Below are positions 26,406-60,900 of a DNA stretch of 64,000 nucleotides, one piece after another. The notes below the pieces were generated by a model. That model saw nothing but the letters and a program-made list of their open reading frames with translations. It had not been told where the DNA came from and did not search any database. The translations under genes and the position numbers were made by a program. Source of the DNA: Candidatus Omnitrophota bacterium (GTDB taxonomy: Bacteria > Omnitrophota > Gorgyraeia > Zapsychrales > Zapsychraceae); contig JAGQKV010000005.1 in assembly GCA_020429915.1 (NCBI GenBank), positions 136,279-200,278 of the forward strand, given 5' to 3'. How positions within the stretch are numbered: position 1 is the first letter of the stretch; each line of letters starts with the position of its first letter.

Positions 26406-26497
26406 ATGTTTGTTAATATCTGCTGGCGACTGACCTTGGTGATTTGGCACCAATTGCGCTATAATATAGTAAGAACGCAATGCCCATAAGGATTCGC

Positions 26498-26893: not shown

Positions 26894-26895
26894 CT

Positions 26896-27240: not shown

Positions 27241-27258
27241 TACCTGCGAGGATAGATT

Positions 27259-28950: not shown

Positions 28951-29247
28951 ATGTTGAAAACTCAGTGCAGAAAGGCCGCCAAATCACGTGGACAGACCAT
29001 GATCGAATTCACGTTTTGTATGATTATCGTATTTTTGATGATTTACTCTATCACCAAGGTTTTTGAATGGTCTGGTCGGGAACTGGTGTCGCGGAGAGTG
29101 GGACATACGTCCCGGTTAACGACTTCAGGCGGGGGCCTTACCCGAAGTTATACCTCCGCCGCCGATAGTGAGCAAATAGCCCAAATATCCCCGTTTTATT
29201 CTTCCGGGGTCGACATGAATGCCGTTTGGCGAGGCGGGGTTAACTAG
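28951..29247 (+). CDS. TadE-like minor pilin (98 aa)
   Basis: KSRG|QTMIEFTFCMIIVFLMIYSI. Confidence 0.6.
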   Translation: MLKTQCRKAAKSRGQTMIEFTFCMIIVFLMIYSITKVFEWSGRELVSRRVGHTSRLTTSGGGLTRSYTSAADSEQIAQISPFYSSGVDMNAVWRGGVN

Positions 29248-29251
29248 AATA

Positions 29252-34593: not shown

Positions 34594-34594
34594 T

Positions 34595-36945: not shown

Positions 36946-39900
36946 ATGGACGAGAAGCCGGACAACTTGGAACCGGAAGAATCAGGAAATCCTAGCCCTC
37001 AGGGTGAGGATTTTCGTCTGTCTCCGGACTTGGTTAATCCCGATTCTCAGGCCGATACAGTTCCTGGCAAGACGCTGGAGTTGAATTTTGCCGAAGATGA
37101 CGACGTGGGAGTGCATCCCGGGCAAATTGACTTGGGCCCATACGTCGAGTCCGACCGCAAAATGCCGACCTTCCACAGCCGCTTCCATTCCTGGATGAAA
37201 GCCGTATCTCTTGCAATCATATTGGTTTTTGTTCCGGAGCAGGCCAGCTGGGCATTTAATTACAATCCGTTGGTTCTGTGGGGTGACAAATCTGCGTACC
37301 CGTCTCAATCGGCCGCTCAGCCGCATGGCGCGGAATTCAACGAGCTTGTTTCCGAACACATTGCCGGTAGTGTTTACAAATTGCTCGGAGACGTCGCCTA
37401 CAAGGACAATGCCCGAGTCAAATTGCAGCTTCCGGCTGGCGGGGCAAACTCAGACCAAGATGTTTCGTTGAACGTAAACATCAAGGGCGAGAATCCCTTT
37501 AATCTTGAATACATAAATCAGGTAGTATCTTGGTTGCGCCAGCCGGAAATCCATCCGCTTAACTGCGGGGTTTATGCGTTGCGGGATATCCTGACTGCGT
37601 ATGAAATTGATGTTGAGCTGGAGGAGTTGTCCGTTTCCTCGCTTGCTGTCGACTTGATGAGTCATATTGTCAAGCCGGGCGAGCCGAAGCTCAAGACCTC
37701 GTTGTATTCCATCAGCAAAATCGTCGACGCCTACGGCCTCGGATTTCGCAATGCCCGTCTGCCGCCGCAGGATGTTGCCAAAATCGACCCGCCATTCATC
37801 GCCAGTTTCAACAATGAACACTTCGTCACTGTCACCGCCATCCAGGACGGCATTGTATACTACAACGACATCGGCCGGCCTTCGCAACTGAGTGAAGCTT
37901 CTTTCGTTTCACAGTTGAGTGGTTTTGTCCTCGCCCGAAATCTCAACCAGCATCAAAACTTAGAAGTCGAATATATTCCGGATTCTATGGCCGCCTTTGT
38001 TTGGGGAGATAAGTGGCGCGACCAGTCTGACGACTTGCCGGGGATGTATGGTTTCTGGGATGAGTTCGGCGGCATCATCATCGGCTTGGCGCTGGCAGGG
38101 ATCGGATACGGTTTGGGGCAGCTGGCCGAAATGTACAAAACGGTCGATATGTTGGCCAAGCTGGCGCAACTTTTTGGTTCACTCGGTCAAATGCTGGGCG
38201 GGGGGATGGCCGCATTTGCGGTTAGCTTCGTGTTCTCTTATGGTCTTTCCCAGTTTGCTTCCTCGGTAGCGACAGTCTGTTACATGAAGGGCGCCTGTAG
38301 CGAAGAAGGGGCCATGTTGTTAAACATAGGTATCTCCGTCGGGGGGAATCTGTGGGCCGGAGGTGTAATTGAGGCCGCGAATGCCGGAGTAACGTCTGCG
38401 TCCGGAGCTACATTGGGAACCATGATGATGGCGGGACTCAAACAGGCCATGGTCAATTTGCCGTCGGCTCTCGCGTATTCTCTTGTTAAACGTTTTGTCA
38501 TGGTCAAGGTCGCCGAGTTTCTTATCAAGGAGTTGGATCTTGCGGACGAGGACGGCGAAGTAGATATCCTGACGCAAACCTTGGTTAATATTGTTGGGGG
38601 GGCTGTCGGTGGGATTATTGGATCGGCAGCCAGTGCTGGGGTGCAGTGGGTTGGTGGAAAGATTGTCGGAGACTCAGGCAATCAAGGCGGTTCCGTCACG
38701 CATGATTCCGAAGGCAAAGTCAACGGATACACGCCGAACTACTCTATATATACCAACGCCCAGGCGAGTGGTTTCTTTATGGATTTCATGAGCCAGGCGC
38801 TTACCAACGAGTTGACCGGGGCCTTTAACCAGCTCGTTGGTCTCGCTGGCCGATACCTTCTTGATGCTGTGGGGGTGGATGCGGATTCCGTGTTGTCTCA
38901 GGTGTTTGGGCAAATGATGTCTTCGCTGATGGCTGTCAGCATGGAGGCCTCGGCCGCCGCAGATTTGGACGAACATCGGGACGAGATTGAGGAAGAGCTC
39001 ACGAACATATTGGTGGAAGAAGGACACCTAAGAAGATCCGGCGATACATTGGAGGTGGTTGCAGACAAGAAACCTACGCAGGCGCAGATGGACGAGTACA
39101 CCCAGCGGGCCATGAACAAGGTCCGGGGAGGGATCGGTTTCCTGTCTCGCCTGAGCGGTGCTTTTTCGCAAATGGGCGGTGGCTTCATGAACCTTTTCAA
39201 CAGCGGGCGTACCAACAATAGCGGGACGCCGGGGGCGCCGCCTGTTGATCCGACAAATTTGGTCGGCACCGCACCTGGTTCCGAGGCGGGGGAAGGCAAG
39301 GGAGAAGGTAAGCTTGATTTAACGGCTGCTGTCGATTTGGCGCTGAACCAACAAGGAGCCGCAGTAAGCCTGTCGAATTTTCAGTTCAACCGGACCTTCA
39401 ATCTTATGACCCAAACCATGATGACCGAGGTGACCGGTATGATCCTGCGCGGTTTGATCAGTCTTGTGGCTGCCGCCGTCATGGACGTGATTGAAAATGA
39501 GTTTGTGGAAGGCGAACGCGAGGGGGTCAATCAAACGGACCGGTTCACGTTATTTATTACCCGGCTCATCACCTTCGGGGTGATGACAGGTGTTACGGCC
39601 GCCGTAGCCATTGCCACTTCCGAGGATGTGGTGACGCCCGACGGAAAAGCGGCTACGGCTGCAGCCGGGGAAAGTGGCGGCGCCACTGGCAGTTTCCTCA
39701 ACGCGGACCCGGATAACGCGACGACAAGGAACGGCATGTCCAAGAGCGAGCAGATGTGGTTTTTTGCGCTGGAGCCGTTTGCCAATCTGTTCATGGGTAT
39801 GGTGCGTAGTATGGCGACGGCCAACGGGACATCTCCGCTCTTCTTCTCATTCGAAGAAATCGGCAACGGCGGCCAGGCGTTAACCGATGAGCAGAAGAAT

Positions 39901-42900
39901 GACCCGGCCTTGGTGAACTATCTGTGGGCGAAAGGTGCGGATGCCTCAGGGGCCGAAGTTGCCAACATGGCCGGCCCGTGGGGAGACATCAATCGGGTTC
40001 TGGCCATTAAACGTTCACGGGAAGGTTCCGAACAGGCGATGGCCGAAGAGCGGGCCCGGGCGAAAGCGGAGCATCCCTCTCGGTCTGATGAGGAGCTGGA
40101 TTTGTATTACGGCGGCGAACAAGCCTGGAATCGGACTCTTACCGGGTTGTGGAACTTGATCGACCAAAACAGATATTCCGGCACTTACGTGTTGGATATG
40201 ATGAACAATCATCTGCTCGGCGCCATGACAAATTTGACGGCGAATCCCTTTATCAATATGGTTGAGTTCTTGGCACCTGCCTTGGGAGAAGGTGCGACTG
40301 CGTGGATGGCAGGCCACGGGCTCCAACCGAAACAGCTGATTTACCAGCAAGGTATGAGTGGACAATTTGAGCTGGGCGTACGCGGTATGAGCAGCCGTCT
40401 GGTGTTGGGCGACGGGGAGGCCCCTGTCCGGATATTCAGCGAGTTTTATGTGCAAACGGGTATGGCGGACTTTTTCTACGATCTTGATGATCTCACGGAT
40501 GCTGAGATTAACTTGCTTATTAAGAAGACGTTTGGCGAGGATTCGCAATTAACCAGGGCAGACCTTGAAAAAGATAAAAATCTGGAGTGGGAAGTACAAC
40601 AAACGTATATCGGGCTGGTTATGCTGGCCAACGGGGCGGACCCCGAAGATCAGGGCGCGATTTTGCGCATGGCTAGCCGCTCATGGGTCCTGGGGACCGC
40701 GGTTGAGCCGGAAGATATCATGATTTCACAGGTCCTTACCGATGCTGGCGTGAATAATTACTACTCCAAGGACGAGGCCACGGGCGCGCTCAATTTCTTC
40801 AGACTTCCTGGAGGGGCGGACGGCGGCAATTTAGAGGTGTATGATCAGAATTACCCCACCTATATCAACTCTAATTATTGGAAACAGTCTGAGTTGGTTG
40901 CTTATAACATGAACAATCCTGGTGGCGAAGTGCAAACTGAGGGCGGATGGCAAAAAATTGCGGACTCCGAAGATCATAATGCGCGAAACATTCCGGGCAA
41001 CGAAAATGTACGCGCCAACGGCATGGCGGCGGCTCTGAATGCGATCGCGGCATTAATCGCCGAAGGGCAAATAACCATGACCCAGGGCGAAGCTCTTATG
41101 GCGGCCTTACGTAGCGGTGACGAGACGGCCTGGAATAATAATGAAGGCGGCAAGGTCATGGCCCGTCTGAACGGTGTCACCACGCCCACCAGGGATCGTG
41201 TTGTCCAAGTTGAGCGACCCAACGGAAACGGCACTGTGCCGGAGGGCGCCCAAGTTATTCAGGGGCCTAACGGTATTAATTTCTATATGGACGATGCCGG
41301 AAATATTATTTTTGCAGGTGCAACCGGCGACGGAGCCGAGGTCATCAGTGAGGGGTCGGTTACCCTTCCGCTTCCTGCAGGTGCTCCGGAGGGCGTCGCT
41401 ACCCTTACTAAGGACGGGAATGTCGTTATTAAAGATGAAACCACTGGTGAGGTGCTCGGAACTTATACCTTGGCCCAACTGTTTCCGGGGATGTCCACAG
41501 ACGGAGGCGCGTCTCCGACAGCAACATCCTCCGGGGGCGGAGAGGCCCTCAGTTTTGCCGCTGTCTTCAAGAACATCGAGAATGCCCGGCTGACGGGATT
41601 TTTTACCGATACAACTCCGTTGGCCGAAGGTGAAACTGCTGAGGGGCGGGATCGGGCTTTTGCCAGCTACTGGATCAATGAGCGTTTCGGCGGGAACCTC
41701 CAACTGCGCATGCGTTATGGATCAATTGTGGAGGCGGGCCTCAACGACGGATATTTTGACCGGGTGGTCGAATTTAGCGTGCGCGAAGGACAACTGGTCG
41801 CCTTCCAGAGCCGGAATTTGATGGCGCTGACACCGTTCGCCGTACACTACTCCGGTTTCCGTTTCGGAGCTGCGCAGAACAGAGACTCGGACGGCAACCC
41901 AACCGACGGCTTTGCTAGATACTTCTTTGTTTTTGAACAGGCAATCGGCAATGACGGGCAAGGCGGACTGGACAAGGGCGACACGGTAGAGATTTTCCGT
42001 CTGGGATTAACCGCCGGAGTTGAGGGAGATTTCGAAGCGGCGCTGAAAGACGTTCCGGAAGAAAATAATGCAGCTACCGGCAGAGGAAAGGGAACAATAC
42101 CTACCAGAACGATTTCACAGGTTGCCTACAGCGAAGTGGGGAACCCGTTGTTCTTCAGTGAGGCCGATCGCAGCAATGCCGCCGCCGGACTGCGCGGGCG
42201 CATGCTGGGGCTCGCCAATGCTATGACCACTCGTCAAGGGGTCGCTAATGCGCCCGGGCTTATTCAACAGTTGTTCGCCGCCATCGACAGTCACCGCGAG
42301 GCTACGACAGGGTACCGGAGCATTTCGCGCACGGCGCGTAACGAGGCGCTGGCCGCCGCGCTCAGCTACGACGGCACCGTCGGTTTCCGGTTTGAGCACC
42401 GCACCGGGAGCGTCATCAATCCGATAACATTCAAAACTATTGACGATGAAGGCTCGCTGACCATGGCCATGATCGGTTCCAAATCGAACGGGACATCTCA
42501 ATTCCAGTTGGCCTTCGGCGGCACGAACATGACGTTGGACAATAACGGATTGCGGGCTGGAAACGGCGCCCTGGTCTTAATCAATACCGTGGGAGCTTAT
42601 AACATCCTCAATATCGTCAATGGAGGATGGCTGAGCGGCAATCTGAACGACGGTCTGCAGTATGCCAGCTTCCTGGCGTTTTATAACGGCCGGGTGGCCA
42701 CGCTTACCGGCTTTAATCCCGGATCGAATTTCAACAACGGTACCGAAGGATGGTCAGAAGGCGCCTTGCTTCAGGAGTTGCATAACTTATACGGCCGCGA
42801 TATGTCGGGCGCGCTTACCGGTGCATCGCTGTCAGTGAACAGCCGTCAGCTCTTCCGCTGGATTGATGCCGGCGACGATGATCGTATCAACGGTATATTG

Positions 42901-45900
42901 AGCTTACAACACATGGCCCGCATTCTGTTCTTGACCATGTCCGAACGGCCGGAAGGGCTGAATCTTTCCGGGATCACCGCTGATATGTTGGCCGAGTTGT
43001 TTATCGCCAGCAGCCAGGAGGGATTTGATCTGGCCACATATATTAACCGGCCGGATACCCTGAATTTACCCAAGGATGCCAACACGTTGGCCAAAGTGCA
43101 AGCGGCTATCGATTTTATCAGTTCCGGTGATTATCAGGTCAACGGTGCCGGCTCCTTATTCCAGGTGGCGGTCCCCGAAGGGGAAGAAGAAAGAGACGTC
43201 AAGACGGCCACCGAAGAGACTCTGAATAACCTGATGGCCCGCGTCATGGCCGGTGTGGTGGAGGCGGTCCGATCCGACGATAACTTGGCCCATCATCCGA
43301 ATCTGTCTAACGCGTTGTCCGGCCCCGATCCGTATCTGGCGCTCTTGGCTTCGGGCGGCGCTGCTCCGGCGACCGAGGGCGAAACCGAAGATGCGCGGCT
43401 CCTGCGGGAAAATGTTCAGGGGAGAGCCGGCGCAGGCTACGTGGGTGCCGCTCCGGTCAACATCACGGCGGCCGAAGGTGACAGCGCCATGTGGGGGCAA
43501 AGATATACCGCCGCCGGAACGGGAACTTACCACTATGATTCGGAAGGGCGCCTTCAGTTTTTGGCCAACCTGGTCGGGAAATACGTGCAGTGGGATCCGG
43601 CTTCACAGACGGCAACGCTCTTCAATTCCGACGGACCTGCCGTCAATCTCATTGTTGATCCGGAAATGCGGAAATATGTTTATGAGACCGGGATTAGGGC
43701 CGGAATTAATAGGTTGCGCGCCCGCGACCAGAACGCGGCGGCCGATGCCTTGGAAGCGGTCCTACAACAGACGCTTGCTGCAACCAATGGGATTGTGAGT
43801 GCCAATGCCATGGAGGCCTTTCTCACAGGTACCGGCAACGGTACGATGGCGCAGTTTTTGTCAGGGAGTGACGCGGCAAAACTTTTGGAGAAGGATGCGC
43901 TTCTGACAACTATCGGTCAGGCTATGGTTGTCGCCGCGGACAGGGTTAACTCCGGCGTGGGGATACCTGAAGGCGCTGTGCAGACCTTTAACCGTCAAAT
44001 CGTCTTGACCGAGCGAGGTGTGTATACGGCGGACAGCATCCTCGTGTTCGATTCGATGCAGGCGGTTCCGAACATTGCGGGCCTGCGTGTACAGAACCTG
44101 ATCATCCGTTATCAGCGCGGACAGGCTCCGGAGTTTTTCGCCTTTGGTTTGACTCCTCGATTCGAATACAAGGGGCCTGCCTCGGCCTTGGCTCAGGCCT
44201 TGTTGGCGGCCTCCGGTCAACTCCAGATGGTTCGTTTCGATGGCGAAGTCACGATCACGGGGATGATTCGCAACTCATTGCTCGGATCGTCGGCAGGCGC
44301 TATGCCGCTGATTTCCGTTCTCACCGGGGACATCAACGCGACCATCAAGGACGGGGCGACCGGGTCTTTGGCCAGGTTCGACGGCACAACGCTGACCGGT
44401 GACCTGTCCATGCGTGACAAATTCACTTTCCGAAATGTCGAGTTCAGCACCGATCGGGACGACGGAACATTCCGAATCCGGTTGTCAGGGCCCGAAGGAT
44501 ATGAGGATGTGCGAGGCGAAGGCGATGTTGAGGGCAATGGACCGGACATGGGGCTGGGCCGGGCATTAAATCCCAATTACACGGCAGTCAATCCGACACC
44601 ATTGGGATCCGGTGTCGACAAGAATCAACAGCCGGACACGACCGGAAACTTGGCCGGACTTATCGATAATGCCGTGTTTGTCGATCGCGGTGCGTTGTCA
44701 AATTTGTATGGTTTCTTTGACGGTGGCGGTGCCGTAGCTACTGCCGGATTAACGGAAGAAACCAGAAATGCTACTCTATATTATGTGCGTGAAGGCGGGG
44801 GCTATCAGGCTATCGTCCCCGCACCGGTCACGGAAGCCACTCCGGACGGGTACGTCGCCGTCGGAAGCCCGATGCGGGGTATGGTCACCGATCTTACGGC
44901 ACCCGGCAGCAGCATCGCCTTGGTTGGAGGGGTGTGGGAGTTGATTACCCAGGGCCGAGCCTCGCTCGCTTCGGATAATCTTCGCGTTATTGTCAGAAAT
45001 GGGGTTATCGCAGACGAACACGCCGGACGCGGATACGACTCGGGGTGGCTCTATCTCGATGGAGTTCGGGGAAGTATCGCGCGCTTTATGCAGTTCGGCG
45101 AGTTTGATATCGTCGGCGGCCGTGTTGTTGTGCGTACGGGGCAGACAAATGTGGATGACCCGATAACGTTGAATAATCGCGGTAAGGTAATCATTCCGAC
45201 TCAGGGCCTGGCTGAGGGTACCGACGTCAGCAGTTTGGTCGCCGGTGGCAGGGCGGTCCAATTGCCGGAGGACATGATTGAATTAACGGGTGAGTACGGG
45301 CTGGTCGATCCGGCTTTGGGATTGGGTCAGGCGCTGATAACGTATGCGGATGCGATCGCCGTCACCTACAATCAAACACGCGAAGACAGATTCGGTTCGA
45401 GGATTTTAATGCGTCGTCAGACGGGAGTTGATGAGCAATCCGGGGAGCCGGTATTTGAGTACAAAATGGTGGATGGTGATGAGGCTCGGCAGTTACGCAA
45501 CGCTGAGGGGGCTCGTGTCTGGAGGGAGTACTCGCCGCGGAGTAATGAGTCCGTCATTTTGCAGGGGAACACCTATTCCCTGGTATCATCCACCGAAGCC
45601 ACCCAGCTGGTTAACGCTCAGCAAGCCCAGCTGGTGGGGGTTGCTGATCTGCGCCGGGAATTTTTATTGCGGAACAAGGACGGGGAGGTCCGCACCATCA
45701 CCCTGCGTGATCTGATTTTTGGCGAATGGCGCGAAGACGCCGAGACCGGTGAAATTTCTTTGGTCGAAGGCCGCGGCGCAGTTAAGGCCGGTTTGGAAAC
45801 CGTGCGTTATGGTTTAGAGGGCCTTTCCCGCGATAACCGGTTGCAGATCACTTACGGTCAAAACGGGATATCCCGGATCTATATGCCGGAAGGCGCGGAA

Positions 45901-48900
45901 CAACAAATTATGTCCCGTCCGGAAGGGCAGCGCATGTTGAATTGGTCCGGCTTCCGGTCCGGTATCACCAACTATTCGTTTGGCCAGCGCGACGGTAACA
46001 ATATGACGTTTTTATTTGCCCCGTTTGTCGGTTTCGCGCGCGAGCCGAATAATATCCAGCCTGTTATGGTCGCGGCCGGACCGCCTACGCCACAGGGCGC
46101 CATGGCGCGGGATGATCTTGCCGAGGCGATCGGGGTAGTAGAAAACTTTATAGCGCAACAGGGGGGGGAGCCTGCCTCCGAGCAATTTGTCAGAGAATAT
46201 GCCGCGGCGCTTGTTGATCTCAACAACGGTCCGAATGCCGAGGATGCCGATCTGAGAGCGGCAATGTTGTTGGGAATGGTGATGGACGGATCTTACGCTG
46301 ATCCGGAGGCCGTGATGGCGCAATTTGGTCCGGCCTATATCGGGCCTGCGGAAGGGACGATGATTCCCTTGACAAGGGATGGAGTTGCCGTTACGGAAGA
46401 CAGGGGCGGAAGCTTGGCCCGTAGCGTCCTTTATTTGGCAGGCGGCGACGGCATCATTGATGTGGCCAATGGGGTTTCGATAAATAATGATCCCTCTCCG
46501 TCAGGACCTGCGCCAGAACTTACCGATCGTGAACGCGAAATTCGTTCGGACACCCGTTCCAGCTTCATGGTGCGCGGTGTAGGGCCGCTTGACGAAAACG
46601 GTGTCACTGATGACGGTTGGGTGGTTGCCGAAGGCTTGCGGGGAGATGTGCCATTTCTGAACCGATTGCGCACGGAAGATTTCAGCAATGGGTCAATTAC
46701 GCCCTTCGGTCCGGCGGCACTCAACCAAACGATAACGGAAGAGGCGCGTGCCGGATTACAAGGGGACAGTCGTATTGTGTTTAGCATGGGGTCTGGTGGC
46801 CCCGGACCGGACGGGGATATTTTCACCGGTAACCTCACGCTTAATTACACCAATGCCAACATTGTTGCGGATCCGACTACAGAATTGAACGCATTACGTG
46901 CGCCCTTTATTTTTGTTATGGAATCCGATCCGGACGCCCCACGGCTCGCCGACCCCTTTTATGAAGGCCAAGGGGCCACTCCGCAGTTGCTTGTTCTGAC
47001 TGAAAACGAAGGCGGTTTGGCCAGTTTGGTTCCAAATGACGACTCAACGGCACAAATTGTCAATTGGCAGGGGGCAAGGCTTATGCGCGGGCGCATTTTC
47101 AAGGCCACCGGTGCCGACGACCTGGCCGGTTATATTGTGCGCGACGGTACGGTGCGCTTCTTCGGTGCCAACGCGCTGTTTTTTGCCGGATATGGTTTCG
47201 AGCGAGGTGTCTATGAGGGGCTCGACAGTAATGCCGCCGGGGACGGTACCGGAGAGAGGGCCAGCCAGCGGGTATATCACGAGTTATTCGAAAAAACAGC
47301 CGGTCTTTATCGTCTGGGAGCCAGCGGTGATTGGGAATTCACGAACTATACTGATCCGGACTGGTTGCGTTCCCAAGGTTTGTCAGAGCCGATACAAATA
47401 GTAGGGCTTCGGGAAGTGTCAGGCGTGTCTGCGCCGCGTACGGAAGGGCGCTGGATAGCTACTAATCTGCAACCGAGTCCGCAGCTCGGATTTGATGTCG
47501 ATGGTGATGGGAAGATCAGTATTCGCGAAGGGCAGGCCCCGAAATTCTTTTTCCGGGAACGGGCGGATGGATTCATTGCGTTCGACGGTGACGAACCTGC
47601 TCAGCAGTTCGGCAGCCGGTGGAGATTTTTATCGGACGGAAGCGTCGATGTTGTGTTAACCGACGGAGCTCCGTACCCCTTGCAGATGACGTCGACTACT
47701 TACAATAATATGTCCGACGCGCAGCGCAATCCGGACATGGTTTTGCGAGTGATTTTAGACCAGGGATTCAACAGAGGGGGGCTAAAGGACGAGCAGCTGA
47801 GGGCCGACATCGAGCATCGGTTTAATCTCCTGGTGGCAGGGACGTGGACGAGCAGGCGTGCCCGGCGTGACGATGACTGGAAATCCCCGTTGAGACGTCA
47901 GGCCATCGAGGAAACTATTATGAGTGATGATACGCCGCTCTCGGCGCTTGGAATTGATCGGGAGGCGCTCGAACAGGAGCGGGGGCGTCCATTGACCGCC
48001 GGAGAAGTAACCGCGCTTCGTCGGGAAAAAGTAGCAGCCTTCTTTAACCAGGTTCAACCCGGTGCCGGGGATGCCCTCGCCGCGGGTGAAGGTGCGCCTG
48101 GGGAAGGGGAAACTCCACAGGGCGGTCCGCTGGAATTCCTCGGTCGCCGAGATGCTAGCGGGCGGATTCGCGTTGAGGGGCAGTATGCCGATCGTGAACT
48201 CCACGGACCCGAAACTCTCGTTATTGCGGGTAAATACGACCCCGAAACCAATACGGGCGATAATCGACTTTATGCGTTGCTGGACGATGATATTGTCGGC
48301 AGAGAGTCTTCACTTCATTTGCGCCGCGGGACCTTCAACCGGTCCCGGGGACGTGCGTTCTTCGAGTTGGTGGATAATCCTGCCATTACCGATATTCGGT
48401 TCGCCAATCAAGGCGTTTATGACCGTCGGGCAACGGTTCCGCAAGTCGTGGTGGCGGCTGACGGCAGCGTGTCCTATCGCTTTCCTATGGTTCGGCGGGG
48501 CATGGACTTGCCTCCGGACTTTGATTACGCTTCCAGGCTGGCTGAGTTCGAGGCCGAAGTGGATAGGTACGCCGGGCGTTACAGCAACAGGCCCAATGCT
48601 GACGCAATAGAAGCCCGGTTCGCCCGCATGATCAGCAATCGATGGCTGCGTGAGATTAACAATAACGAAAATTTCACGTATGGAATCGAATACGACGACA
48701 TAATGGGCATGGCCGGTGAATTCGGCGTCGGACAAGGCGGTATGACCGGCCGGCAATTGAGCGCTTGGATCACGCAAATTCTAATTCACCGCCAGGACCC
48801 CACCGAAGGAGGAATGGAAGGTTTGGGCGGTCAGTTGCTGAGTAACGGGTTTGTTTACCTTCCCGCCGACGGTTTTGCGGCCGGTAGCCGCTTGGAAAAA

Positions 48901-51900
48901 CAATCCTTCGTTAACACATTGGAGGATCTGCGCAATTGGGGATTAATTTCTATCAGCGATCGCGATATGCGGGCAATCCGGAATGGTGATGCCCTTTCCC
49001 GTCGGGAGACCGACTTTGACTTTAATGTCAATTCGCCATTTGCTGAACACAGAGAGTCTTTGCCGGAGGGCCGGGCCGGGACCAATTTTGCCGCGGAACA
49101 GCAGGCCCGTCTGGACGCCGGCGGGGCGACCGTGGCTGAGATGGGTATGGCCCGTATGGGCTTGTTGGAGGCTATGCAGTTTGCGATCGCCAGCGGCCTG
49201 ACGACGCGGGAGGAGCTGAGCGCAGGGCTGCTCGAGCGCGCCAATCGCGGTGACCAAGCCGCAGCTGATCTATTGGCTCTATTCAACAACGGCCTTCAAG
49301 GGGAAGAGTTCCGTGGGGCCATGGAAGGGGCGCGCAGCGCTGAAGTTATCCGTGTCTACACGGAGCGTTTTCAGCATGACGACTTTAAGGCTGTGTGGGG
49401 CTTCAATGAGGAAGGTCAATTCGGAGCATTGCAGGTGCGGGACTTTAACCGTTCGGAAGGATGGTTCGACTGGATCGGCAACGAGAACTTTACGGCATCC
49501 GGCCTTACCGGGCAAGAATCCGGCACAACCGGGGAAATCGATGATGACGAAGCGGTGTATGTTTCGCGCAATGAGTGGCAGGATTTGACCACCTTGGGTG
49601 ATGCGGGGGGTAGGGAACCGTCGGAGAAAACCTTCGAAGAGGCATACCAGGAAAACAAAGGGGGCACGTTGGCCCAGTTGCGCGCCATTGAAAGCTTCGG
49701 GCCGTTGCGTTATGCCGGTCAAGGTTGGGGTATGGCTGATGACGATACCGGGACGATTTTCTACGGTGAAGATGGCAAGCTGCGAACGGGCTGGATTAAC
49801 CGATCCAACGATCAGGAAGCCATTATGCGAAACATCGGCGGTGAAAATGCCCTCCGCTTCGCCGGTCAATTGGATTCCATGGGGACGGTAGCTACAATCA
49901 TGGGGGCGCTGGTTATTCTGGACGTCGTGATCACTGTGGTTGAAGTGGTCGCTATTATAGCCACGGGAGGTCTGGGTACGCCGGTTGCTGCCGGAGCTGG
50001 GGAAGGGGCTAAGCAAGGGATCAAGGCTGGCGTCCGGTTTGGGGTTCGCTACGGTGCCAGACGGGCTGTGATGGGCACGATGCGCAAGTATGGGGTGCAC
50101 GCAGCCTTGGAGGTGGCTACGCGATTGGCGGCGCATACGGCAGCTACCAGGGGCACCCGACTTTTAGCCGGTATCGCGGTGCGTGGGCTTGCGCCTATTT
50201 CCCGAAGACTGATGGCTCCCGGAGTTGTAGGGGCGTTCATGCGGGGGGCGAGTGTAAGCTATACCAAACGGCGCCTGATAGCATACGGTTTGATCGGCGG
50301 ATCCATCAATGCAGCGTTAGGTTCCTATGCCCGCGGCGAAGTGTCAATGGAAACCTTTACGGATTTTGCCCACGGCGCATTCCTCTTTGGTCTCTTGTCC
50401 CGCCGGGCGCCGGCCAAGGCGGCCGGTTCGGCGCTTCAGCGTGGCCTTACCGGAAGCTTGATGGCTGGGGCGCAACGGGCTTCCGAGGCGGTCAGATCAA
50501 CTAATTTAGGTGGTCGGGTGGCGAGTACTATGCTTGGCAGGGGGGTAACGAGCGCCGGATTTATCCTTGGCGCCGGAGTCTTTGGCGGTTCGGTTGCGGC
50601 GTTGCAACTCGGTTCGAGAATGCGCGGCAACGAGGCCCCGGGACTTTACGAGTCGCTCGCCATTGGAGGTTTGGCGACCGCGGCGATATTAGGCGGCGGC
50701 CGTTTGGCGGCGGCCCAATTCGGCGGCGCCTATGCCGGGGCCAAACAGTTCGGACAGACAATTGCCTCTATTGGGCTGCTCGGTTTGGGGGTGGGTACGT
50801 TGGTCCACGGGACAGATATGAGCCTGGAGGAACGGACCGCAAAATTGACCGGGGACGATCTCGGATTTATGTATCGCACGCGCAAGGCGTTGACAGGCGG
50901 GTTACAAACAGCGTCGTACATGACGATAGTTGCCGGCGGTATGCGCGGACTGGGTTATGCCGCCACGGCCGAGCTGAAGACCGGGAGCAGAGTGGGCGTA
51001 TCCATGTTAACCGGTGCCGGATTCGGCGGTGCGATGCGCGCGAATTATCTCGCGTGGAATAGCGATACTGCTGATGTAATGTGGGATAATGCCTTGTTGG
51101 ATATCGGAACCTATGCGGCGGGCGGTGGTTTTCTCTTGGGGCCGACCGCCTTGCTCGCGATGCGAGCCGGAGCCAGTTCTCCGCATGCAATTCGGGAGCA
51201 GATGGCGCGGACCGCATTAAGGCAGGCGGGAAGAGAGCTGGCGCAAACTGCCAAGCTCGATTCACGTGCCATCGAGATGGCCCTCAGAAGCAAAACTCCG
51301 CAGCAGCTGGCCCGGTTGGAACGGGCCGTTCGCTGGGAATTGGCGGCGCCGCGTACGTTCGGCGAACTGTCCATGCGCGGCAAGGTGCTCAATGCCGTCG
51401 GGTTTGCCGGAGTCGGCGGGGCTGGAAAGGTCGGTTACGAATACTTCTTTAATTCGTCCGCTGAAAACCCATACTCCGTGGGGCAGGGCGTGGCCGATTT
51501 CATCGGCGGCGCCGGTCTGGCCATGTTGGCGCTCTTTGCCATACGCGGGGCCAAGAATCTGAGTTTGTTGCGTAATTTCTCCGATGATGCGGCCTTCCAA
51601 TCCGCCCGTTTGGGCGCAGCTGCCAAGGGTGTTGAGGCCGCCGGTCCACGGTCTGCTGCCCAGGCCTTGTTTGATCAGTCCGCTGCAGGTGCCGCGAAGT
51701 GGACGCTTGTTTCTCCGGCTTTTACGATCGGTGGCGCGCTGTGGACAGGGCTTGCGGCCCGTGTCGAAACAATGATCGACGGCGACGAATCGCGTTACCG
51801 GAAATTCTTCGGTCCGGGGCGTTTACCGGCGTTTATCCTCCAAACGGAAGGCGGATACATTAATCTGATATCCGGACAAGGGCTTCAAGCCGTCTATGAC

Positions 51901-54900
51901 AGTGCGGTGACCGGTCCGCTTCACGGTCTGTGGATGGCTCCGGCGTTCGGAACATTCCAGGTCCTCGGCGGCAATGTCCGTCCGGGAGGCGGCATTCGTA
52001 CTGCAGCCGGCCGTTTCCTGCAAGCCGTTCAACGGGGGCCGGGAGAGTCGGCCGGCAAGATAGTCTCGACCTTGTATCGTGATGTCGGGTACATGCCGGG
52101 GTTGGTTACCCTGACCTCAACGGCGGTCGATTTCTTCAGTAACGGCAGCAACACAGTATCATTGTCAGCTTTAGCCCGGTTTATCGACAACTCCGGACTC
52201 GGCCAGGAATTGAATGCCAAATTTGCGGGTCAGGAGGTCGGTGCGGTTCGTGAAAGCCGTTACACGGAAGTTGAAGTTAACGGCGAAACAAAATATCAGT
52301 TTAAGTACGGTAACGCTGTCGAGGGAACGAACCGTCCGGTTGTTTTTAGCCACTATGAGCTTGAGGCGGCCGGGTATGCGGCCTTCCTGGGCTTGCCGCA
52401 AGTCGGTGAGCGGACGAAGCAATTGCGGACGCAGGCGCGTGATGCCGAAGCTGAAGGTAACTATGCGACAGCTCGACAGCTGGCGACCGAGGCTACGCGT
52501 ATCGACCGTTACGATACAGAGGCCTGGGGCATCAGACTGCGATCAGAACGGGGACTGGCCCTCAGCAGGGGAATTCCATTAAGAGAGGTCTCGGATTCGC
52601 ATAATGAACTTCTCGAAGTTGCCCTTTCCACGGGAGATGAAGCCTTCATCAATGACGCGAAACTGCAGCAGGGTATATACAAGTCCGATGTCAACAAGAT
52701 GGCCGCTGACAAGTACATTTATTACGGTCTGCGAGAAGTCGAAAATGCATACAATGCTACCTCAGCTGCGGAGCGGGGGCAATTCGAGGCCGCGGCTCTG
52801 CAGTTCTTCGCACGGGCTGAAGGGGCGGTCGATCGTGCGATGAGCCACAATCCGAGCAATGTGGATGCATTGGCTGCCAGGGCGAACATCGCCAAAGGGC
52901 AGGCCCTTCTGCGCGGGGATTACGCCCAGCCGGAAGTTCAGGCATCCATAATCGAAGGGTTCCGACAGGCGCAGCAACTTGCCGTACGGGAATTTGGTGC
53001 GAAATCAGATGTTGTCAACCACTTCGATATGGCAATTAAGGCGGAGGAAGGCCGGATGGCCGAGGCTCGTATGAAGGAATCCTGGCGTCAACTTGGCCGT
53101 ACGGAAGCGGGGGCGGAACTTGATTCGACGTTGGTTGCAAAGGGGGTCGCCGATGCCGCGGAAATGCGGGCCAAAATGGTGGACGGGGATTACACCGCTT
53201 CCACGCTGTTCGTCGCCGCCGAATTTGACAGAATGTCGCACGGAGATAGAGGTTTTCTGGAGCGGGACGCGACTACGGGCAATGATATCGGAGCCAAACG
53301 TTTTCACGCTTACGAAGGTGAGATGAGCCGGGCGCTTGAGTTGGCCCGGAGCGCGAACGATGCAAAGCTCGCGGATGTGATTTCCGCGAATTTGAACGCC
53401 GTTCGCTTCCAGCGCTATACCCATGAGGGATATCAAGCGGCCACCGAGCCGGGACGCGACTTGCAACTCGCTTACAGCAAGTTCGGTCAGGCACGCAAGT
53501 ATGCTGACGCTGTTTCAGCGGAAGCAGCGGAAAAGGCGGAAAGCAACTTCCAGATTATAGCCGATTTACTGCCTTCCGAAATGCTGGCCAAAGCGCGGCT
53601 GAGTACATCCGAGTGGGGGACGATCCACCAGTTTGAAGCCACACGTGTAGAGGCGAACGCCCCCAAGCAAGCGCAGGATGCGGCCGATGCTGCCCAATCA
53701 AGTTACGAGGCTATGCTGCGTACCATGAGCCCGGAAAAGGCCAGCGTTCTGCCGGAGGTCAATTTCAGGGCATGGGCTCAAATTCAAGGTAAGGCCGGCT
53801 CACCTAGTGCGCGTGTGCAAGGGCTGGCTCGGATCGCTAAGGCCCAGCACCTCCGGGGAGAATCCACGCAGGTGATTGACCGGTTGATTACACGGATGGA
53901 ATCGCAGAAAGGCAAGTCCCCTGAAGGGACGGCCCAAGTGATCGCACGTCAAATCGATCGCGAGATCGACCAGGAAATCCGTGACGTCAGGGATTTTAAG
54001 GATAATGTTAAGCCCTACGGCAAGCCTACTGAGACCTTTACGGACCGCAATGGCTTCACTGAAGCTCAACTGCGGATCATGGGGCGGTACAACAATGCGG
54101 CTAACGCGTTTTTTGAGACGGGAGGTAAAGTGCCGGTCGGTGCGGAAGTCCCGGTGGCCCGCGAGTTCCGTCTTGCCGGTGATGAATATCGCCCAATGCT
54201 TCAGGAAATGACTCCTGATCTGGCATCCCGGTTGTCTACTGATAACTATCGGCGTTGGTTGGGTATCGCCAGCGACGGGAAGATCACTACAGGTGACCGT
54301 AGTGTCGGCGCCGATAAGGGGGGTGATCAAACAGGTCTTCAGGCTACTGTTTCGGGTGACCTTTCGGTGGATGCCGCAGTGACTATTGCCAAGGCAGCCT
54401 TCCTGAGAGGTGACACGACCACACTGGAATTGATGCGCGGACGGATAGAGACGTCCAAAACCGATGACGCCGTATCCCAACGGGTGGCTCTGGAAAGCTG
54501 GATGAAGAGCACCAAACCCAATCAGCAGGCAGATTTGACCGAGGCCGGATTTGAAGTGATAGATCTCGCCTCAGCTGTGAAAACGGCCCCCGAAAGCAGC
54601 GACTTAGGGCCCGTAACCATCCGCCATACTCCCATGCCGTCCTCCGGCCATAGTAGCACAAGAAGATCTTCCGGATCAGATTTCAGTGTCATCAGTCAGT
54701 CCGGCGATGCCAAAGACGTAGAATTTGCCCGCGAAGGACTAGCCGGTGAAATGAATATCGGCCGGTCCGGTATGGATCGAAAGGCTATGCAGGGCGTGGC
54801 TGTGCGTGAAGCCGGAGACGTTTCAGGGGAAGGCAGACGTCAGGAAGATTTGAGCGCGATACTCACGGGTGTCGATTTGCGTTGGCAGTCCACTACTGAT

Positions 54901-57900
54901 GGCAAGCAGTTCAAAGAAATGTATAAGGGAATAGATTTCGAACCGATCGTCTGGGGATCCCGGCCCTATGAAGCCGGTGCGGACGCCAAAGATTTTGCGC
55001 TGCTGGTCGATAACGTTACTGGTCTTAGGAATGAACTGCGGATCGCCCAAGGCAACGCCGAAAACAGCGGAGGATATAAAGCCAGAATTGAAAAAGACGT
55101 GAATCAACGCATCGATGCCGCGCTGGACAAATTCCTTCAAGACCGGTCGCCGAACACGTCAAGAGACGCCATCAAGGAGTTTGTTGTCGAACAGGCCGAT
55201 CAGATCCTTCAACAGTACGACCGGGCGGGAGCTGCATACAGGCATGCCAAAAAAGATTTCGATGCGCATGGAACGCCGGGTCGTGAGGCGCAATCCGAAA
55301 TCCTCAGTCTCTTCTTTACGACAATCAATGAAATGGCCATGATTGAACGAAATCCTTCGCTGGCCGGAAACAACAGAATCGGCCGTGTCATGTCCGCCCC
55401 GACCGGTGCCGGTAAGTCCGTTGCCCTGGCCCTGGCCCTTGATTATTTGACCCGGATAAAGACAGCGGGCGATAAGACGACCATCGTGGCCGTGCCGAAC
55501 TTGAGCGTTAAGAAGGAAGTTATGGATATCGCCCGGATCATGGGGACCCGAATTAATGATGTGAGTGTCGGAAGCGGCGGTGAGACCGGCAAAAGCCTTA
55601 GCTTGGCCAAAGAGTCGATAAATATCGCCTTGCATTCCGAGGCGCAGCAACTTCTATTGAGTGGCCGATTGGGTAAGGACGGAACCGTCAAGAATTACCG
55701 GCTTTTCGTTGACGAAATTGACGAATTCATCCGTATGAACGATATGCGCGAGGGTGATTCCAGTGCGAAGGACGTTGAGCAATTGCGAAATTCTACTTTG
55801 CCCGCAGATAGGCGTCTGCTCCGGCGGGAACAGTCTTTACGGGAAGACATCGAAATTTTTGCCCAGATCGTCGAATCCAGGATCAGGGGGTTTGAAAATC
55901 AGGGAGACATCGCTAATCCGGCAGGTCGGGTGGTCGAACTTCTGGACAATGGAAAAACCCGTTTTATCGACCATGATGGAATCATGGCCGAATTCAAAGC
56001 CGCCTTGGCAGAACGAAAGGGTATGAGCAACCCGGAAGCCGCCTTCCGTGCATTTGAGAGGGAATTGCGTGAGGTCAGTACCGAAACCAACCATAAACGT
56101 GATGATGCTGGGAATATTATTCAGGAGGGGACGCCGGTTAATTTCAACACGTTAATCAACGAAATCGGGGCGAGTATCCGTAGGGGCGAAGGTAGTGGTG
56201 GGGCGTCCTATGACAAAGGGTCCATCACCAAGGTTGCCACCGTTGACCGGGGCGGCAGACAGTCCGATACCACTCCGGAAGTTCGCGAGCAGGCCATGGC
56301 CAATGCGGTTACCGCGCTTATGCGAGCGGCCAGAGACGGACGATTGGAACAAAATTCTCCGGATGCCGAGATTGCCTTCCAGTTGGCCTTGCGGCAAAAG
56401 CCGGCCAGCCGTGTTGCCCGCGCTTCGGATGTTATCGGTCAGGCAGACATGTTTATCGGTTTTTCAGCGACTGCCCAGTCGGTCAAATTCTATTTAGAGA
56501 ATATTGAAGGCGCCGAGATTCGTGTGGTGCGTAGCGAAAGCAACAAAGAAATCGATTCTACCGAAAGATCCGAATTGATGTTGCTTAATGACGACAGTGT
56601 CCGCGATATTGTCGGTCCGGACAGATCCGTGCGCCGCCAAATCGCTTTGATTGAACGCCGCATTTTGGGAACATCCCGGGAAGATACCAAAAGCACCGAC
56701 CTGAACCGTGACCGGATTTGGGTCAAGCTGGATAGCAATAATCAGGTCGTCAGGGCGGAGAAAGGTCAGGAAGGCGCCATAGAAATCAACCGTTCGCCCG
56801 TCACCGGTCTGCTTATCCAGAATCTTGCCTTGTTTGAGGCCTTGAGTAAGCCCGGTACACGGTTGCGTGAGGGTACCGGCGCTGAAAAATACGATGTCGT
56901 GTCAGCGGCAAGCGGCAGTGAAAAAGCGGAAACGGCTGCCAAAGCCAAGATTCAGCGGGCATTGAGTACGGATCTTGTCGTGGAAATACTGCAAACTCAT
57001 AGGGAAATAGCGGCGGCCCGTGAATCAGGTGACAGCGCCAAAGTCAGTGAACTTGATGCCAAGTTGCAAAGACTGGAATCCGAACGCAACGTTGTCGTCG
57101 TCTATAACGGTTTGGTTACAGGTTCAAACATCCTGGGCGCGAACGCGGGTGTCCGATCTCTGCGTGCGCAAGTGGAAGCCGGGGAATTCGCCGTCAAGGA
57201 ACTTACGGAAATGGCGAAGGCCGTGAGCGGGGAAACCACCCGTTCCGGTCTGGACAGCCGCCTTAACACATTGCTTAATTATGTTTCCGACGCCGATAAG
57301 TTCGGTTTGACCAAATCCGCTTCCAGCGTTCAGGGCGCGCTCAAGGAAGCGATGGACCTCAGCCGTCAGCTCGGGGAAACCACGGATGCTGGCAAAGCCA
57401 GTGCTTTGAGTTCACGAATCGCCACCCGGTTGCAGGAGGCCAGCAACGAAGTGTCCCGAGAGTTGCGGCCGATGCAGGAAAGCTACGACTTAACCTCCAA
57501 AATCAATGTCGTCTCGTGGGGAGCCAAGCCGACCGCTGAAACGAGCCAGGCCTTGGGTCGCGGGGATATTAATGAAGATGTCGGTTCCAAGCGTGCGCGC
57601 GTTAACAAGGCCTTGTCTGTTATCGCCATTCATCACGAAGGTGACATCATGAGTGACTCGTTGATCCGGGCCGCAGAGGGTATTTTGGCCAAGGGCGGCG
57701 GAGAACAGCGGGATGCGGACGTCATGGAAATGTTCCGCAAGATCATGGATGAAGCCGGGTTCCGCGGAGAGATGAATCAGGTTGTTCAGGTGGTGCGTCA
57801 GGGAACGCGGACCAATGTCGTTGAGTCGAAGGTCATGGAGTTGGCCGGTAAACGGGCGGAGCAGATAAAGATGGACCGTTTGTTGAATGTTCTTAATACG

Positions 57901-60900
57901 GTCAACGCACGAAATACAGGTAACAGGCTGACCACGATTTCGACCCTGTCAGGATCGGCCTATGAAGGCTTTGCAGCGGCCGTGGATTCCGGATATGCGC
58001 AGACGGGTAAGTTTTCGGACTTGAAACGCACAACAATTACGGCCGTCCAGGATCTGCCGACGTTAGGTCTTTTCGCCAATGAAACACTTGATATCGAATC
58101 AGGTATCATCCAAGGCCGGGCCGCAGCGCCGCAGGTCAAAATCCACTTCGAGGCCACTATGGCTGATGTTGAGAACAAGGCGGGGGCCGTTCTGGATGCC
58201 ATTGAATTTAACAAGCGCGGATTTGCGCAGCGTCTTGCAAATGCGGCTGTTACTGAGTCCAAGACCGACGCTATGCCTATGGCCGTTGCGAATTTTGGCG
58301 ACAGCACTCTCGATGCGACGCAACAAATGGCTGTCGGCAGACTTACGCAGTTACTGCCCTCCCAGGTTGAGGCGTTGGCGAAAGAAAGCGGACTGAGTAC
58401 TGAGTTGGCCCGTGAATTAGGTGAGCAGGTCGAGGCCTTGCAGGAATTCGCCAATACGAACTTGGGGACACAAAGAGTTTCCGTATATTCGTCCGCCGAC
58501 CGACCCTTAAGTGAAATTCAGCTCAATCAAATTCAGAAAAACCTGCAAGCCAATGCCGCCCAGTTTAAGGGCGTAAAGCAGGTGATTCTGCAAAATCGCG
58601 ATGTGGATCAAGCGGATTCCATGGAGGCGATCAAACTGGGAACGGAAAATCAAACCGCGCCGGTTATCTTGCCTGCTAACATAGTCACCCAAACCATATC
58701 TACGCCGATCACGATTACACCGATGACCCTGCCGACGATGACCATGCCGATGTCTCGCGGGGCTACAACGGGGGCGGATCAATCGATTGCCTTCTCCTCA
58801 GATCGGCGCATTCCGGTTGTTTCCACCGCGGGAGATCTGTCGGATGTTGAAAGCGGAACGTTGAAACAAAATTTAGGTTCGGATGATGCGTTTAAGGACG
58901 TCAGCGAGATTGTCCTGTTCGACTCGACCACCGGGCAAACGGACAACACCTTTATAGTGGAAGAGTACGGGCAAAAGACCCTTTTTGTTAATCGTCAATT
59001 AACACAAAAGTTGGCTTCCCGGCCGGTGACCCTCGGAACGGCACGGGACGAAGTCGGTATCATCGAAAGCACCCGGACCGGCGCGCCTGCCCGCGTGCTG
59101 ATGGCCGAAACCAGTGGACAAACTCGATCACAAGTCAAAGTCAATGTCTTCAACATGCCGGAGGCTACGACAGCCAGAACGCGCCCGGTGGCCGTACTGG
59201 CGTACCGTATGCCGGATGCCGCCGACAAGGGCAAGCCGATTACCTATGAACGTATGGAAATTGACGGAGGCACGGTTCGAATTGATACGGCTCAGAGACG
59301 CCGGTCCCAAATCGCCAATCTGACACGAGACTTACAAAAAGCGGAAGCTTCCGGTGATTTGAAAGCCGTGGATCAATTACGCGTAAGGATCGAAAAGCTC
59401 GAAATCGATAATGCGGGATCTCCGGAAACATCCGTCGTGCTTGTTCCGAAGCTCGATGAATTCGGTAATCCGCAGTTGGCCGGTATTATGGTCGACAATC
59501 TGTTTGTTCCGAATTTCGACACAGCGAAAGAACGGCAGTCTGAAATCGCACTTCTGACGCAGAGCCTGAAGCAAGCGGAAGATAACGGCGACACGGCGCG
59601 AGTACAGAACATCACTCAGCAAATTCAGGATCTGAAGATCAACGCCCCTGCGGTTCATGAGGCGGGTGTAACAATCACGCGCTCCATTCCCGTGAGCCGG
59701 GAAATCGCCGGCAATGAGGGCGGCGTCGTCACCAAGCCGGTTCAGGTTTCCCAGCATATTCGGTTCGACGGATTTATGGCCGATTCCGTTGCGGTCGTGC
59801 TTGAAGATACGGATGTTGGAATGGATGCAGGGGACATTATATTTATGTCACCGGCGAGCAGCAATGACAATGTGTTGCTTGTACAGTCGGGAGACAAGGC
59901 TCGCCGAGATGCCGGTCTACCTTTGGTTCGTAGGGACAGCAGAGGGTCCAAAGATCTCAAGGGAGCCATCGTTTTCGGTCAATATATCGATCTGGATCAG
60001 CCGCTTACTAGTGTCAAAATTACGAATTTTGGCCGTGGGTCTGACCAAGGCGCAGACATCGAACGCGTAGCCAATGACGTCGCCCAAATATCTCCGGATA
60101 TGATGCTGGCCTTGGCCAAGGCAAGCAACTTGGATGCGGCAACAGGAAAGCAAATGGTGGCCGAAGTGCGTGCCTTCCAGGACAGACTGACAAATAATCC
60201 GGCCGGCGAATTTACCCGTGAGGAAGTGCAGTCCAGCCTAGGAACAGTCTTCTCTGCGATAGACAGGGCTCCGGATATGGGGGCCAATTTGAAGATTGCC
60301 GCGTTACCGGTATCCGAAAGCAAGGGGCTGCCCTCGCTGCAGCCGATTGTTATCAGAGAAGCTGTGCTTTCCGACCAAAGTTTCACGCGTGGTATCAATT
60401 TATTGTCACAGATCAAACCCGAAATTATACCGGTTCTGGCGAAAGCTGCGCGAATCTCGTCAACCGATGCCAAATTAATGGCGGGTGAAGTCCGTTCGCT
60501 GCAGCGCAGTTTTTCAAGCTCGGTGAGCGGAGTTATGTCCATAAATCAGATCAAAGGTCTTGCCCGGAGAACTGTTGCGGCGATGGAACAGAATTCGGAC
60601 TTTGCCGACGCGGTCCGTTCGGCGGCAAAGGCAACTGAGACGGGAAGTTATGAGTTTGTGTTGGACGACAACGGGAGACAGGCGCTGGAATCCCTTGATT
60701 TGGGTCAGTATGTGGAGACCGGTAAGGATCAGGGATCTGGCTATATTAAGACCCAGATTCCGAAGGCGGTTATCGGGAATGTCATCGTGAACCAGATTCG
60801 GACACAGCGGTTGGCCCGGTTGGCCGATGTAATCGAGAACGACTCTCGATACATCCAGGATGCGACATCGTTGGGCACCGAGTATATCGTTGATGCAGGA

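Follow-up and report, generated by a model that had tools for sequence, protein, structure and literature searches.

A conserved Gly/Ala-rich, membrane-protein-like module and its closing domain in a Tad-linked giant protein of Omnitrophota

A giant open reading frame (ORF) in the genome of a Candidatus Omnitrophota bacterium raises the question of how so long a polypeptide is held at a membrane and which of its parts lie on which side. The ORF is located in a 64,000-nucleotide stretch of contig JAGQKV010000005.1 (the whole stretch, at its full length, is called the window here), and about 4,300 residues into its product lies a block rich in small residues, which an earlier note on this DNA had described as a second membrane-embedded module of a dozen or more glycine-zipper helices, possibly forming a channel or pore. 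Few predicted proteins are as large as the Omnitrophota giants, and hardly any part of them has an annotation; the threading and membrane retention of such polypeptides is a question posed in two preprints (10.1101/2023.11.21.568195; 10.64898/2026.06.07.730766). The block was found to be real, conserved and membrane-protein-like, and the details of the earlier description to be overstated. Judged from sequence, amino acids (aa) ~4305-5085 would constitute a conserved resident inner-membrane anchor and boundary module of a Tad-linked Omnitrophota giant protein, a reading to which we give a slightly better than even chance.

All five peptides quoted in the earlier note are present in the frame of the giant ORF, in which nucleotides (nt) 49858-51780 encode aa 4305-4945. 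The starting point given in that note, 49860, is one base out of frame, and translation from there meets stop codons; the interval itself is real, but the unit runs about 140 aa past the end assigned to it, to about nt 52200. Glycine (15.6 %) and alanine (18.3 %) together account for 34 % of the residues of the block, with 7.5 % arginine and 2.5 % lysine, and a local GC peak of 0.61 at 50-52 kb matches this Gly/Ala/Arg-rich stretch with its GC-rich codons. The net charge per 100 aa is +4.2 in the block, as compared to -5.0 for aa 900-4300 and -1.8 for aa 5101-9018.

Hydropathy was assessed by the Kyte-Doolittle (KD) mean over 19 residues and by the plain sum of the Hessa 2005 scale per 19-mer, with a cut-off of <=5 kcal/mol. 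The Hessa values, summed without position weighting, are used only relative to controls from the same window, for which the membrane proteins YidC, TadB and TadC and about 5,000 aa of soluble proteins were used. The known transmembrane (TM) helices of the three membrane proteins gave sums of -2 to +4.7, and the soluble proteins contained a single 19-mer within the cut-off. In the giant protein such 19-mers are confined to aa 376-892 and 4314-4938, with none in the other ~7,600 aa, and the 15 segments regarded as TM-grade on this calibrated hydropathy all belong to these two clusters. The mean KD of the block (+0.29) is close to that of TadB/TadC (+0.40), the soluble stretches having values of -0.13 to -0.58. 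When compared with composition shuffles, the block holds 8 segments at Hessa <=5 as against ~3.9 (p~0.01) and 7 uncharged spans of at least 19 aa as against 3.7 (p~0.03); in such comparisons with their own shuffles, the block and the true membrane proteins lie above and the soluble stretches below. The calibrated hydropathy, the hydrophobic helices kept in relatives and a charge of +16 after the strongest helix indirectly support the proposal of a second membrane-embedded module, with eight Hessa-scale segments and one borderline case in place of the dozen or more helices that had been proposed.

The strongest of these helices, the entry helix, carries D4326 (D, D, E, D and D in five relatives) and E4333, and is preceded in the closer relatives by a (Q)LDSMG-like motif. 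The loop behind it, aa 4339-4443, contains 18 Lys and Arg against 2 Asp and Glu, and several Arg-rich segments of the block are amphipathic, with hydrophobic moments of 0.46-0.63. Across five relatives at 27-50 % identity, six helices keep a family-mean KD over 19 residues (KD19) of at least 1.0. Further towards the C-terminus a ~60-aa unit could be recognised, consisting of a short Gly-rich helix, a polar loop and a helix A (x-D-F-x-G-G-A-x-x-G-x-L...R-G-x-K-N, with D4851 conserved). Apart from the strong and the weak copy listed in Table 1, a possible further copy occurs in the window protein at aa 4448-4512 (E 0.09 with a hidden Markov model (HMM) of the unit). In relatives the upstream copy is detected with far smaller E-values, 1e-9 to 1e-13 in P0001, P0010, L001 and L005 and 4.5e-6 in P0012. 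In part, then, the block consists of degenerate copies of this helix-loop-helix unit.

With aa 4286-5060 as the query, HMMER was run exhaustively against 1.84 billion representative proteins and gave 15 matches. The closest relative, P0001, aligns colinearly with the window protein along 2,649 aa (43 % identity), spans the whole block as well as the downstream ATPase, and has its hydrophobic helices at matching positions; the remaining matches share aa ~4843-5085 only. Scans of genome and metagenome contigs, made with six sequences as the first alignment was too divergent, added eleven more loci, some of them on contigs of Omnitrophota metagenome-assembled genomes (MAGs). Word-indexed homologue searches with the whole block, a 14-sequence alignment and a 161-aa core returned no matches.

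The region shared by the family is a closing domain of ~250 aa with three motifs (Table 1), the first of which has the family form W-x2-V-S-P-A-F-x-x-G-G-x-x-W-x-G in the 22-sequence alignment. Over these 22 sequences the residues A, W, S, G, P, G, W and M of the domain are invariant. That no charged residue is among them speaks against a catalytic site and in favour of a role in packing or at the membrane interface. Nothing significant was obtained from Pfam with the block or with each of the 22 closing-domain sequences, from NCBIfam and PHROGs with the block, or from PDB sequences with the family profile, the best PDB match of which (E=0.13) was to a single TM-like helix of PsaL. Upstream of the domain, relatives with enough sequence have 200-600 aa of 30-40 % Gly and Ala, and most of them have a strong hydrophobic entry helix 400-620 aa before VSPAF. 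All full-length relatives have just two elements in common, this module and the anchor/C39-like region at the N-terminus, and the distance between them varies from ~700 aa in L004, L009 and L010 to ~4,500 aa in the window protein and P0014. The L004 contig (CAIWXV010000015.1) is binned as 'uncultured Dehalococcoidia'; it has the anchor, the C39-like domain and the module of the Omnitrophota proteins, and the N-terminal sequence of its giant ORF hardly differs from that of L009. Going by these sequences, the contig is probably mis-binned.

Clues to the sidedness of the module come from what follows it. A Walker A/B ATPase of superfamily 2 (SF2) lies +1229 aa after the module in the window protein and +1173 aa after it in P0001; its motifs in the window protein are APTGAGKS (aa 6151), LFVDEID (aa 6253) and GFSAT (aa 6505), with ~245 aa between motifs II and III. 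In the Pfam scan, SecA_DEAD (PF07517) was not reported at E<=1 and the generic DEAD family (PF00270) matched instead. L010 has a DnaJ J-domain (E 1e-13) at about 10790-10950, aa +248 to +300 after the module, followed by a weak DEAD match, and L001 has a weak DEAD match at about 14110-14480, ~1,350 aa after the module. Together, the SF2 ATPase, the J-domain and the weak DEAD matches indicate a cytoplasmic location for the region C-terminal to the module. Behind the entry helix the net charge is +16 in the window protein, +15 in P0001 and +16 in L001, which fits an outside-to-inside crossing under the positive-inside rule, and the sharp change of composition across the block fits two different compartments. 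Lysine amounts to 1.5 % of the residues encoded by 39646-49845 and 4.9 % of those encoded by 52246-63999, with glycine at 11.9 % and 7.0 %, respectively.

Composition, clustering, conservation, the lack of library matches for the closing domain, the Tad synteny and the downstream cytoplasmic markers are observations; that the block enters a membrane at all, how often and in which direction it crosses it, and whether it is linked to the ATPase or the Tad machine, we infer from them, and the following arrangement is proposed on that footing. The module would be inserted in the cell's own cytoplasmic membrane, where it would serve as an anchor and a topological boundary. In order along the chain, an entry helix with a conserved Asp would be followed by a ~100-aa Arg-rich Gly/Ala stretch, about five to eight weak Gly/Ala-rich helices, which may have arisen partly through duplication of the ~60-aa unit, and the closing domain. 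At the entry helix the chain would pass inwards across the membrane, leaving the acidic, Lys-poor ~3,400 aa upstream of the block outside the cytoplasm and bringing the downstream half, SF2 ATPase included, into the cell, with the Gly/Ala-rich helices and the closing domain embedded in, or associated with, the membrane.

A number of observations weigh against such a multi-span anchor. Composition alone accounts for about half of the segments in the shuffles, only four of the candidate helices reach KD >=1.5 (4 as against 3.3 in shuffles, not significant; counts at KD >=1.2 are likewise not above shuffles), and the helix/loop hydropathy contrast is z=1.1 in the block as compared to 2.1-4.1 for YidC, TadB and TadC. 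From the shuffles it follows that most of the signal is block-level composition, with a modest segregation of helices and loops only. The most conserved motifs are not TM-grade either, with a family KD19 of ~0.6 at VSPAF and ~0.5 at GLWMAP, and in P0014, P0010 and L005 no helix above KD ~1.4 occurs upstream of the domain. The conserved hydrophobic helices number six, or nine with the marginal ones, a count compatible with either parity and hence with either side for the upstream region. Only behind the entry helix is there a strong positive-inside signal; in the N-terminal cluster every loop is acidic and hence uninformative for orientation. Single-sequence AlphaFold2 models of aa 4830-5090 and aa 4296-4960 had a predicted local distance difference test score (pLDDT) of 35 and 38, respectively, and were unusable. 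An ATPase at a fixed distance from the module was found only in the window protein and P0001. A tight, family-wide coupling of the module to a downstream ATPase had also been considered, and was rejected as a strict Walker A/B pair at a similar distance is seen in these two proteins only.

Several of these points favour a block that, apart from the entry helix, does not span the membrane, so that a single-span anchor would lead into a peripheral or soluble Gly/Ala/Arg-rich domain. The KD counts that do not exceed shuffles, the weak hydropathy contrast and the amphipathic Arg-rich segments agree with it, and the odd parity of one span suits an N-terminal part outside and a C-terminal part inside. 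It is a serious rival because the helix count allows either span parity, some relatives have no TM-grade helices and the conserved motifs are moderately hydrophobic at most. Nevertheless the uncharged spans and the Hessa <=5 segments are both in excess of shuffles, the latter are absent from the rest of the protein outside the two clusters and nearly so from the soluble controls, and six helices stay hydrophobic in relatives of 27-50 % identity. We consider a single span possible, if rather improbable. That the stretch is not translated as read, whether through a frameshift, through mis-assembly or because the gene is on the other strand, is extremely improbable: a 285-aa antisense ORF (49279-50136) does overlap the start of the block, but the frame is uninterrupted over 27 kb, the antisense ORFs have no family match, no tandem repeats were found in the DNA, and the block protein is conserved across independent MAGs and metagenomes, which effectively excludes an artefact.

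A channel or pore, which the earlier note had suggested together with a comparison to VacA or MscS-like families, could take two forms: the producer's own membrane might contain a conduit cooperating with the downstream ATPase or with the Tad machine, or a pore might be delivered into the membrane of prey. The predatory lifestyle and the Tad linkage are in keeping with this, as are the many weakly hydrophobic, small-residue-rich helices, the conserved Asp within two hydrophobic helices (D4326 and D4851) and a closing domain that is not enzyme-like, having no invariant charged residue. Small-xxx-small motifs are marginally enriched (110 as against 99.6+/-6 in shuffles, p~0.05), as are triple small-xxx-small motifs (51 as against 39+/-6, p~0.03). 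The glycine zipper itself did not hold, however, since GxxxG occurs 15 times in the block and 15.4+/-3.3 times in 2,000 shuffles, a frequency expected from composition. Moreover, at E<=1 Pfam gave no match in aa 3609-5412, Gly-zipper and MS_channel families included, except a weak TPR_14; Pfam matched no Gly-zipper or VacA family model in any of the 22 members of the closing-domain family; for MS_channel the block has no match in Pfam or NCBIfam, and the family profile none among PDB sequences; and similarity to other families of Pfam, NCBIfam, PHROGs or PDB is likewise absent. For a delivered toxin, it is further unfavourable that the block is flanked by regions of >3,000 aa and followed by cytoplasmic-type domains, which a resident anchor fits better. 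A channel or pore is thus unlikely, and a glycine-zipper channel of the VacA or MscS type finds no backing in GxxxG counts or family matches. Doubtful, but worth stating, is a bolder reading, in which the block and closing domain would be an undescribed membrane family and, with the anchor and C39-like domain, the conserved core of Tad-linked giant proteins, acting as an active device and not a passive anchor. As part of the same doubtful proposal, the device might be an ion- or proton-coupled conduit using the intramembrane Asp, or might support threading or holding of the external part during predation, assisted by the J-domain or SF2 ATPase.

Table 1. Features of the giant ORF and of the adjoining Tad genes, in window coordinates
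Feature	Nucleotides	Strand	Residues (aa)	Remarks
TadB/TadC-like pair (2x T2SSF)	33736..35467	+		last recognised Tad genes; ~1.5 kb before the giant gene start
Giant ORF, 5' part	36946..64000	+		at least 9,018 codons, continues past the window end; aa numbering from ATG 36946
N-terminal anchor helix	37201..37257	+	86-104	...VFVPEQASWAF; motif kept in P0014, L004, L009, L010
Peptidase_C39-like domain	37561..37935	+	206-330	Pfam 30 bits vs cut-off 22; weak TIGR03796 match
First hydrophobic cluster	38065..39621	+	374-564 and 831-892	candidate helices
QLDSMG motif and entry helix	49867..49959	+	4308-4338	top 19-mer of the protein, KD 2.77
Basic Gly/Ala-rich stretch after entry helix	50008..50274	+		contains amphipathic segments
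Marginal helix LIAYGLIGGSINAALGSYA	50275..50331	+	4444-4462	KD 1.20, Hessa sum 5.0, family mean 1.05
Candidate TM helix GVTSAGFILGAGVFGGSVAALQLGS	50542..50616	+	4533-4557	KD 1.62, Hessa sum 3.4, family mean 1.55-1.65
Candidate TM helix SLAIGGLATAAILGGGRLAA	50653..50712	+	4570-4589	KD 1.46, Hessa sum 4.1, family mean 1.3-1.4
Candidate TM helix QFGQTIASIGLLGLGVGTLVHGT	50746..50814	+	4601-4623	KD 1.55, Hessa sum 3.7
Weak second copy of ~60-aa helix-loop-helix unit	51013..51165	+	4690-4740	unit HMM E 0.003
Candidate helix IGTYAAGGGFLLGPTALLAM		+	4720-4739	inside the weak second unit copy
Strong unit copy		+	4820-4878	opens the closing domain; helix A GVADFIGGAGLAMLALFAI, conserved D4851, R-G-x-K-N cap
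Closing domain, ~250 aa	51403..52200	+	4820-5085	defined by the 22-sequence alignment (A3)
Motif 1 K-W-x2-V-S-P-A-F-T-x-G-G-A-x-W-x-G	51697..51750	+	4918-4935	A, W, S invariant in 22 sequences
Motif 2 G-P-x2-G-x-W-M-x-P-x-F-x3-Q-V	51913..51963	+	4990-5006	G, P, G, W, M invariant
Motif 3 Y-R-D-V-x-Y-M-P-G-x-V-T	52075..52110	+	5044-5055	
SF2 (DEAD-type) ATPase core	55387..56472	+		Pfam DEAD (PF00270) 28 bits vs cut-off 26

The reading frame of the giant gene is free of stops from nt 36934 to the end of the window, with its first ATG at 36946, and in the 9,018 aa thus visible Pfam recognises just two domains, the Peptidase_C39-like domain and a DEAD-type domain at aa 6148-6286. A search of PDB sequences with phmmer gave no match for the upstream 3,401 aa, the downstream 3,918 aa or the ATPase region. 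The start codon is uncertain, as ATG 36946 has no obvious Shine-Dalgarno sequence upstream (window 36946-37200) and the stretch of 85 aa that it places N-terminal to the anchor helix is very acidic; translation could instead begin at ATG 37162, since the relative L010 has just ~30 aa ahead of its anchor. At the end of the anchor helix the motif V-F-(V/I)-P-E-Q-x-x-W-A is conserved among otherwise divergent giant proteins (L004, L009, L010 and P0014), a degree of conservation that suggests a specific targeting or processing signal. The cluster at 38040-38700, to which the block had been likened, resembles it in composition; it shows no sequence similarity to the block by BLAST or HMM and its net charge is opposite in sign. 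A BLAST search of the giant protein for internal repeats found none.

The giant gene follows a Tad-type cassette of RcpC/CpaB, a secretin, a fused CpaE/CpaF ATPase, small Flp/TadE-like ORFs, two large membrane-anchored ORFs and TadB/TadC, and a TadB/TadC pair is also found directly upstream of the homologous gene in L009 and L010. The DnaA, DnaN, secretin and TadB proteins of the window exactly match proteins of Candidatus Omnitrophota MAGs (MCA9393537.1 and others). At the other end of the window (1-12309) is a chromosomal origin region, where parB, parA and yidC on the minus strand are followed by dnaA, dnaN, gyrB and gyrA on the plus strand, and beyond about 4-6 kb the cumulative GC skew climbs; the Tad cassette and the giant gene thus lie close to the origin and point in the direction of replication.

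Within the cassette, the secretin (18645-20330, plus strand) has an extra C-terminal TonB_C domain (E 1.5e-15) beside Secretin and T2SS-T3SS_pil_N, and in the 721-aa protein at 20387-22552 (plus strand) a ParA/MinD-like (CpaE/TadZ-like) domain is fused to a T2SSE secretion ATPase (CpaF/TadA-like). Seven small plus-strand ORFs of 73-137 aa (24945-27582) share a Flp/TadE-type N-terminus, in which K-G-Q-S-x-I/L-E-Y leads into a hydrophobic helix; for one Tad cassette, so many pilin or pseudopilin paralogues are unusual. Three further plus-strand ORFs have no Pfam family: 23008-24666 (552 aa, with a weak HTH_32 match only), 27604-28896 (430 aa) and 29219-33172 (1,317 aa). The 430-aa and 1,317-aa products begin with hydrophobic helices and are possible TadG or pseudopilin-like components.

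The protein described here is an addition to a known but poorly understood class of giants, whose general picture has already been published. What is new is the conserved, unannotated module with its ~250-aa closing domain, along with the Tad synteny and a defined cytoplasmic side. The candidate TM helices of this block form a recurring module and are not random anchors. It can serve as a landmark for orienting the two halves of such proteins and as a seed alignment for a new domain model, and its specific residues provide handles.

Among known systems, the Archaeovorin-type giants of Omnitrophota are the nearest. Giant genes of this phylum have been described as encoding an N-terminal C39 domain near a signal peptide, numerous TM regions and divergent SecA/DEAD domains, with type II secretion genes as neighbours (10.1101/2023.11.21.568195); in a catalogue of 916 long proteins, those of >=10 kaa average 22 TM helices (10.64898/2026.06.07.730766); and the giant ORF of V. 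archaeovorus LiM, 39,678 aa long, has 42 TM helices, Tad loci occurring across the phylum (PMC10066038). Going by these counts, two separated TM clusters, which the earlier note took to be unusual, are the rule in this protein class. In the passages of these three papers that were read or searched by keyword, neither a TM block forming a conserved module nor a VSPAF/GLWM/YMPG domain was found described. West-Roberts et al. 2023 propose that adjacent TM regions anchor the SecA/DEAD-type domains (10.1101/2023.11.21.568195). The window protein resembles Archaeovorins in its Omnitrophota host, its ORF of >9,000 aa with very few recognisable domains, its N-terminal anchor and C39-like domain, its several candidate TM clusters, its putative divergent DEAD-type ATPase and the adjacent Tad/type II genes. 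It differs in matching generic DEAD (PF00270) and not SecA_DEAD (PF07517), and the HEAT, GT and dockerin domains listed for Archaeovorins are absent from its visible 9,018 aa; as to size, the catalogue of West-Roberts et al. comprises ORFs of >10,000 aa, and the present ORF, with at least 9,018 codons, continues past the window.

Other likenesses are more distant. Glycine-zipper proteins and pore formers (the N-terminal GxxxG repeats of VacA; Gly-zipper_Omp, Gly-zipper_OmpA and Gly-zipper_YMGG) share with the block its small-residue-rich, weakly hydrophobic helices, but the conserved glycines of the present family form GG-x3-G and GG-x4-G and not a GxxxG ladder. Peptidase-containing ABC exporters (PCAT/AMS) combine a C39 domain, a 6-TM domain and an ATPase, and the same order, C39-like domain, membrane helices and ATPase, is seen here; however, the ATPase is of the SF2/DEAD and not the ABC type, there is no ABC_membrane or ABC_tran match, and the elements are thousands of residues apart, so that the likeness is an analogy of architecture only. 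SecA-SecYEG differs in that no SecA_DEAD, SecA preprotein-binding or SecY match was obtained for the window protein and in that the motor lies 1,230 aa from the block, yet both have a P-loop motor with an insertion, of ~245 aa here, between motifs II and III, placed in the window protein downstream of a membrane block. In SecA, it is between these two motifs that the preprotein-binding domain sits.

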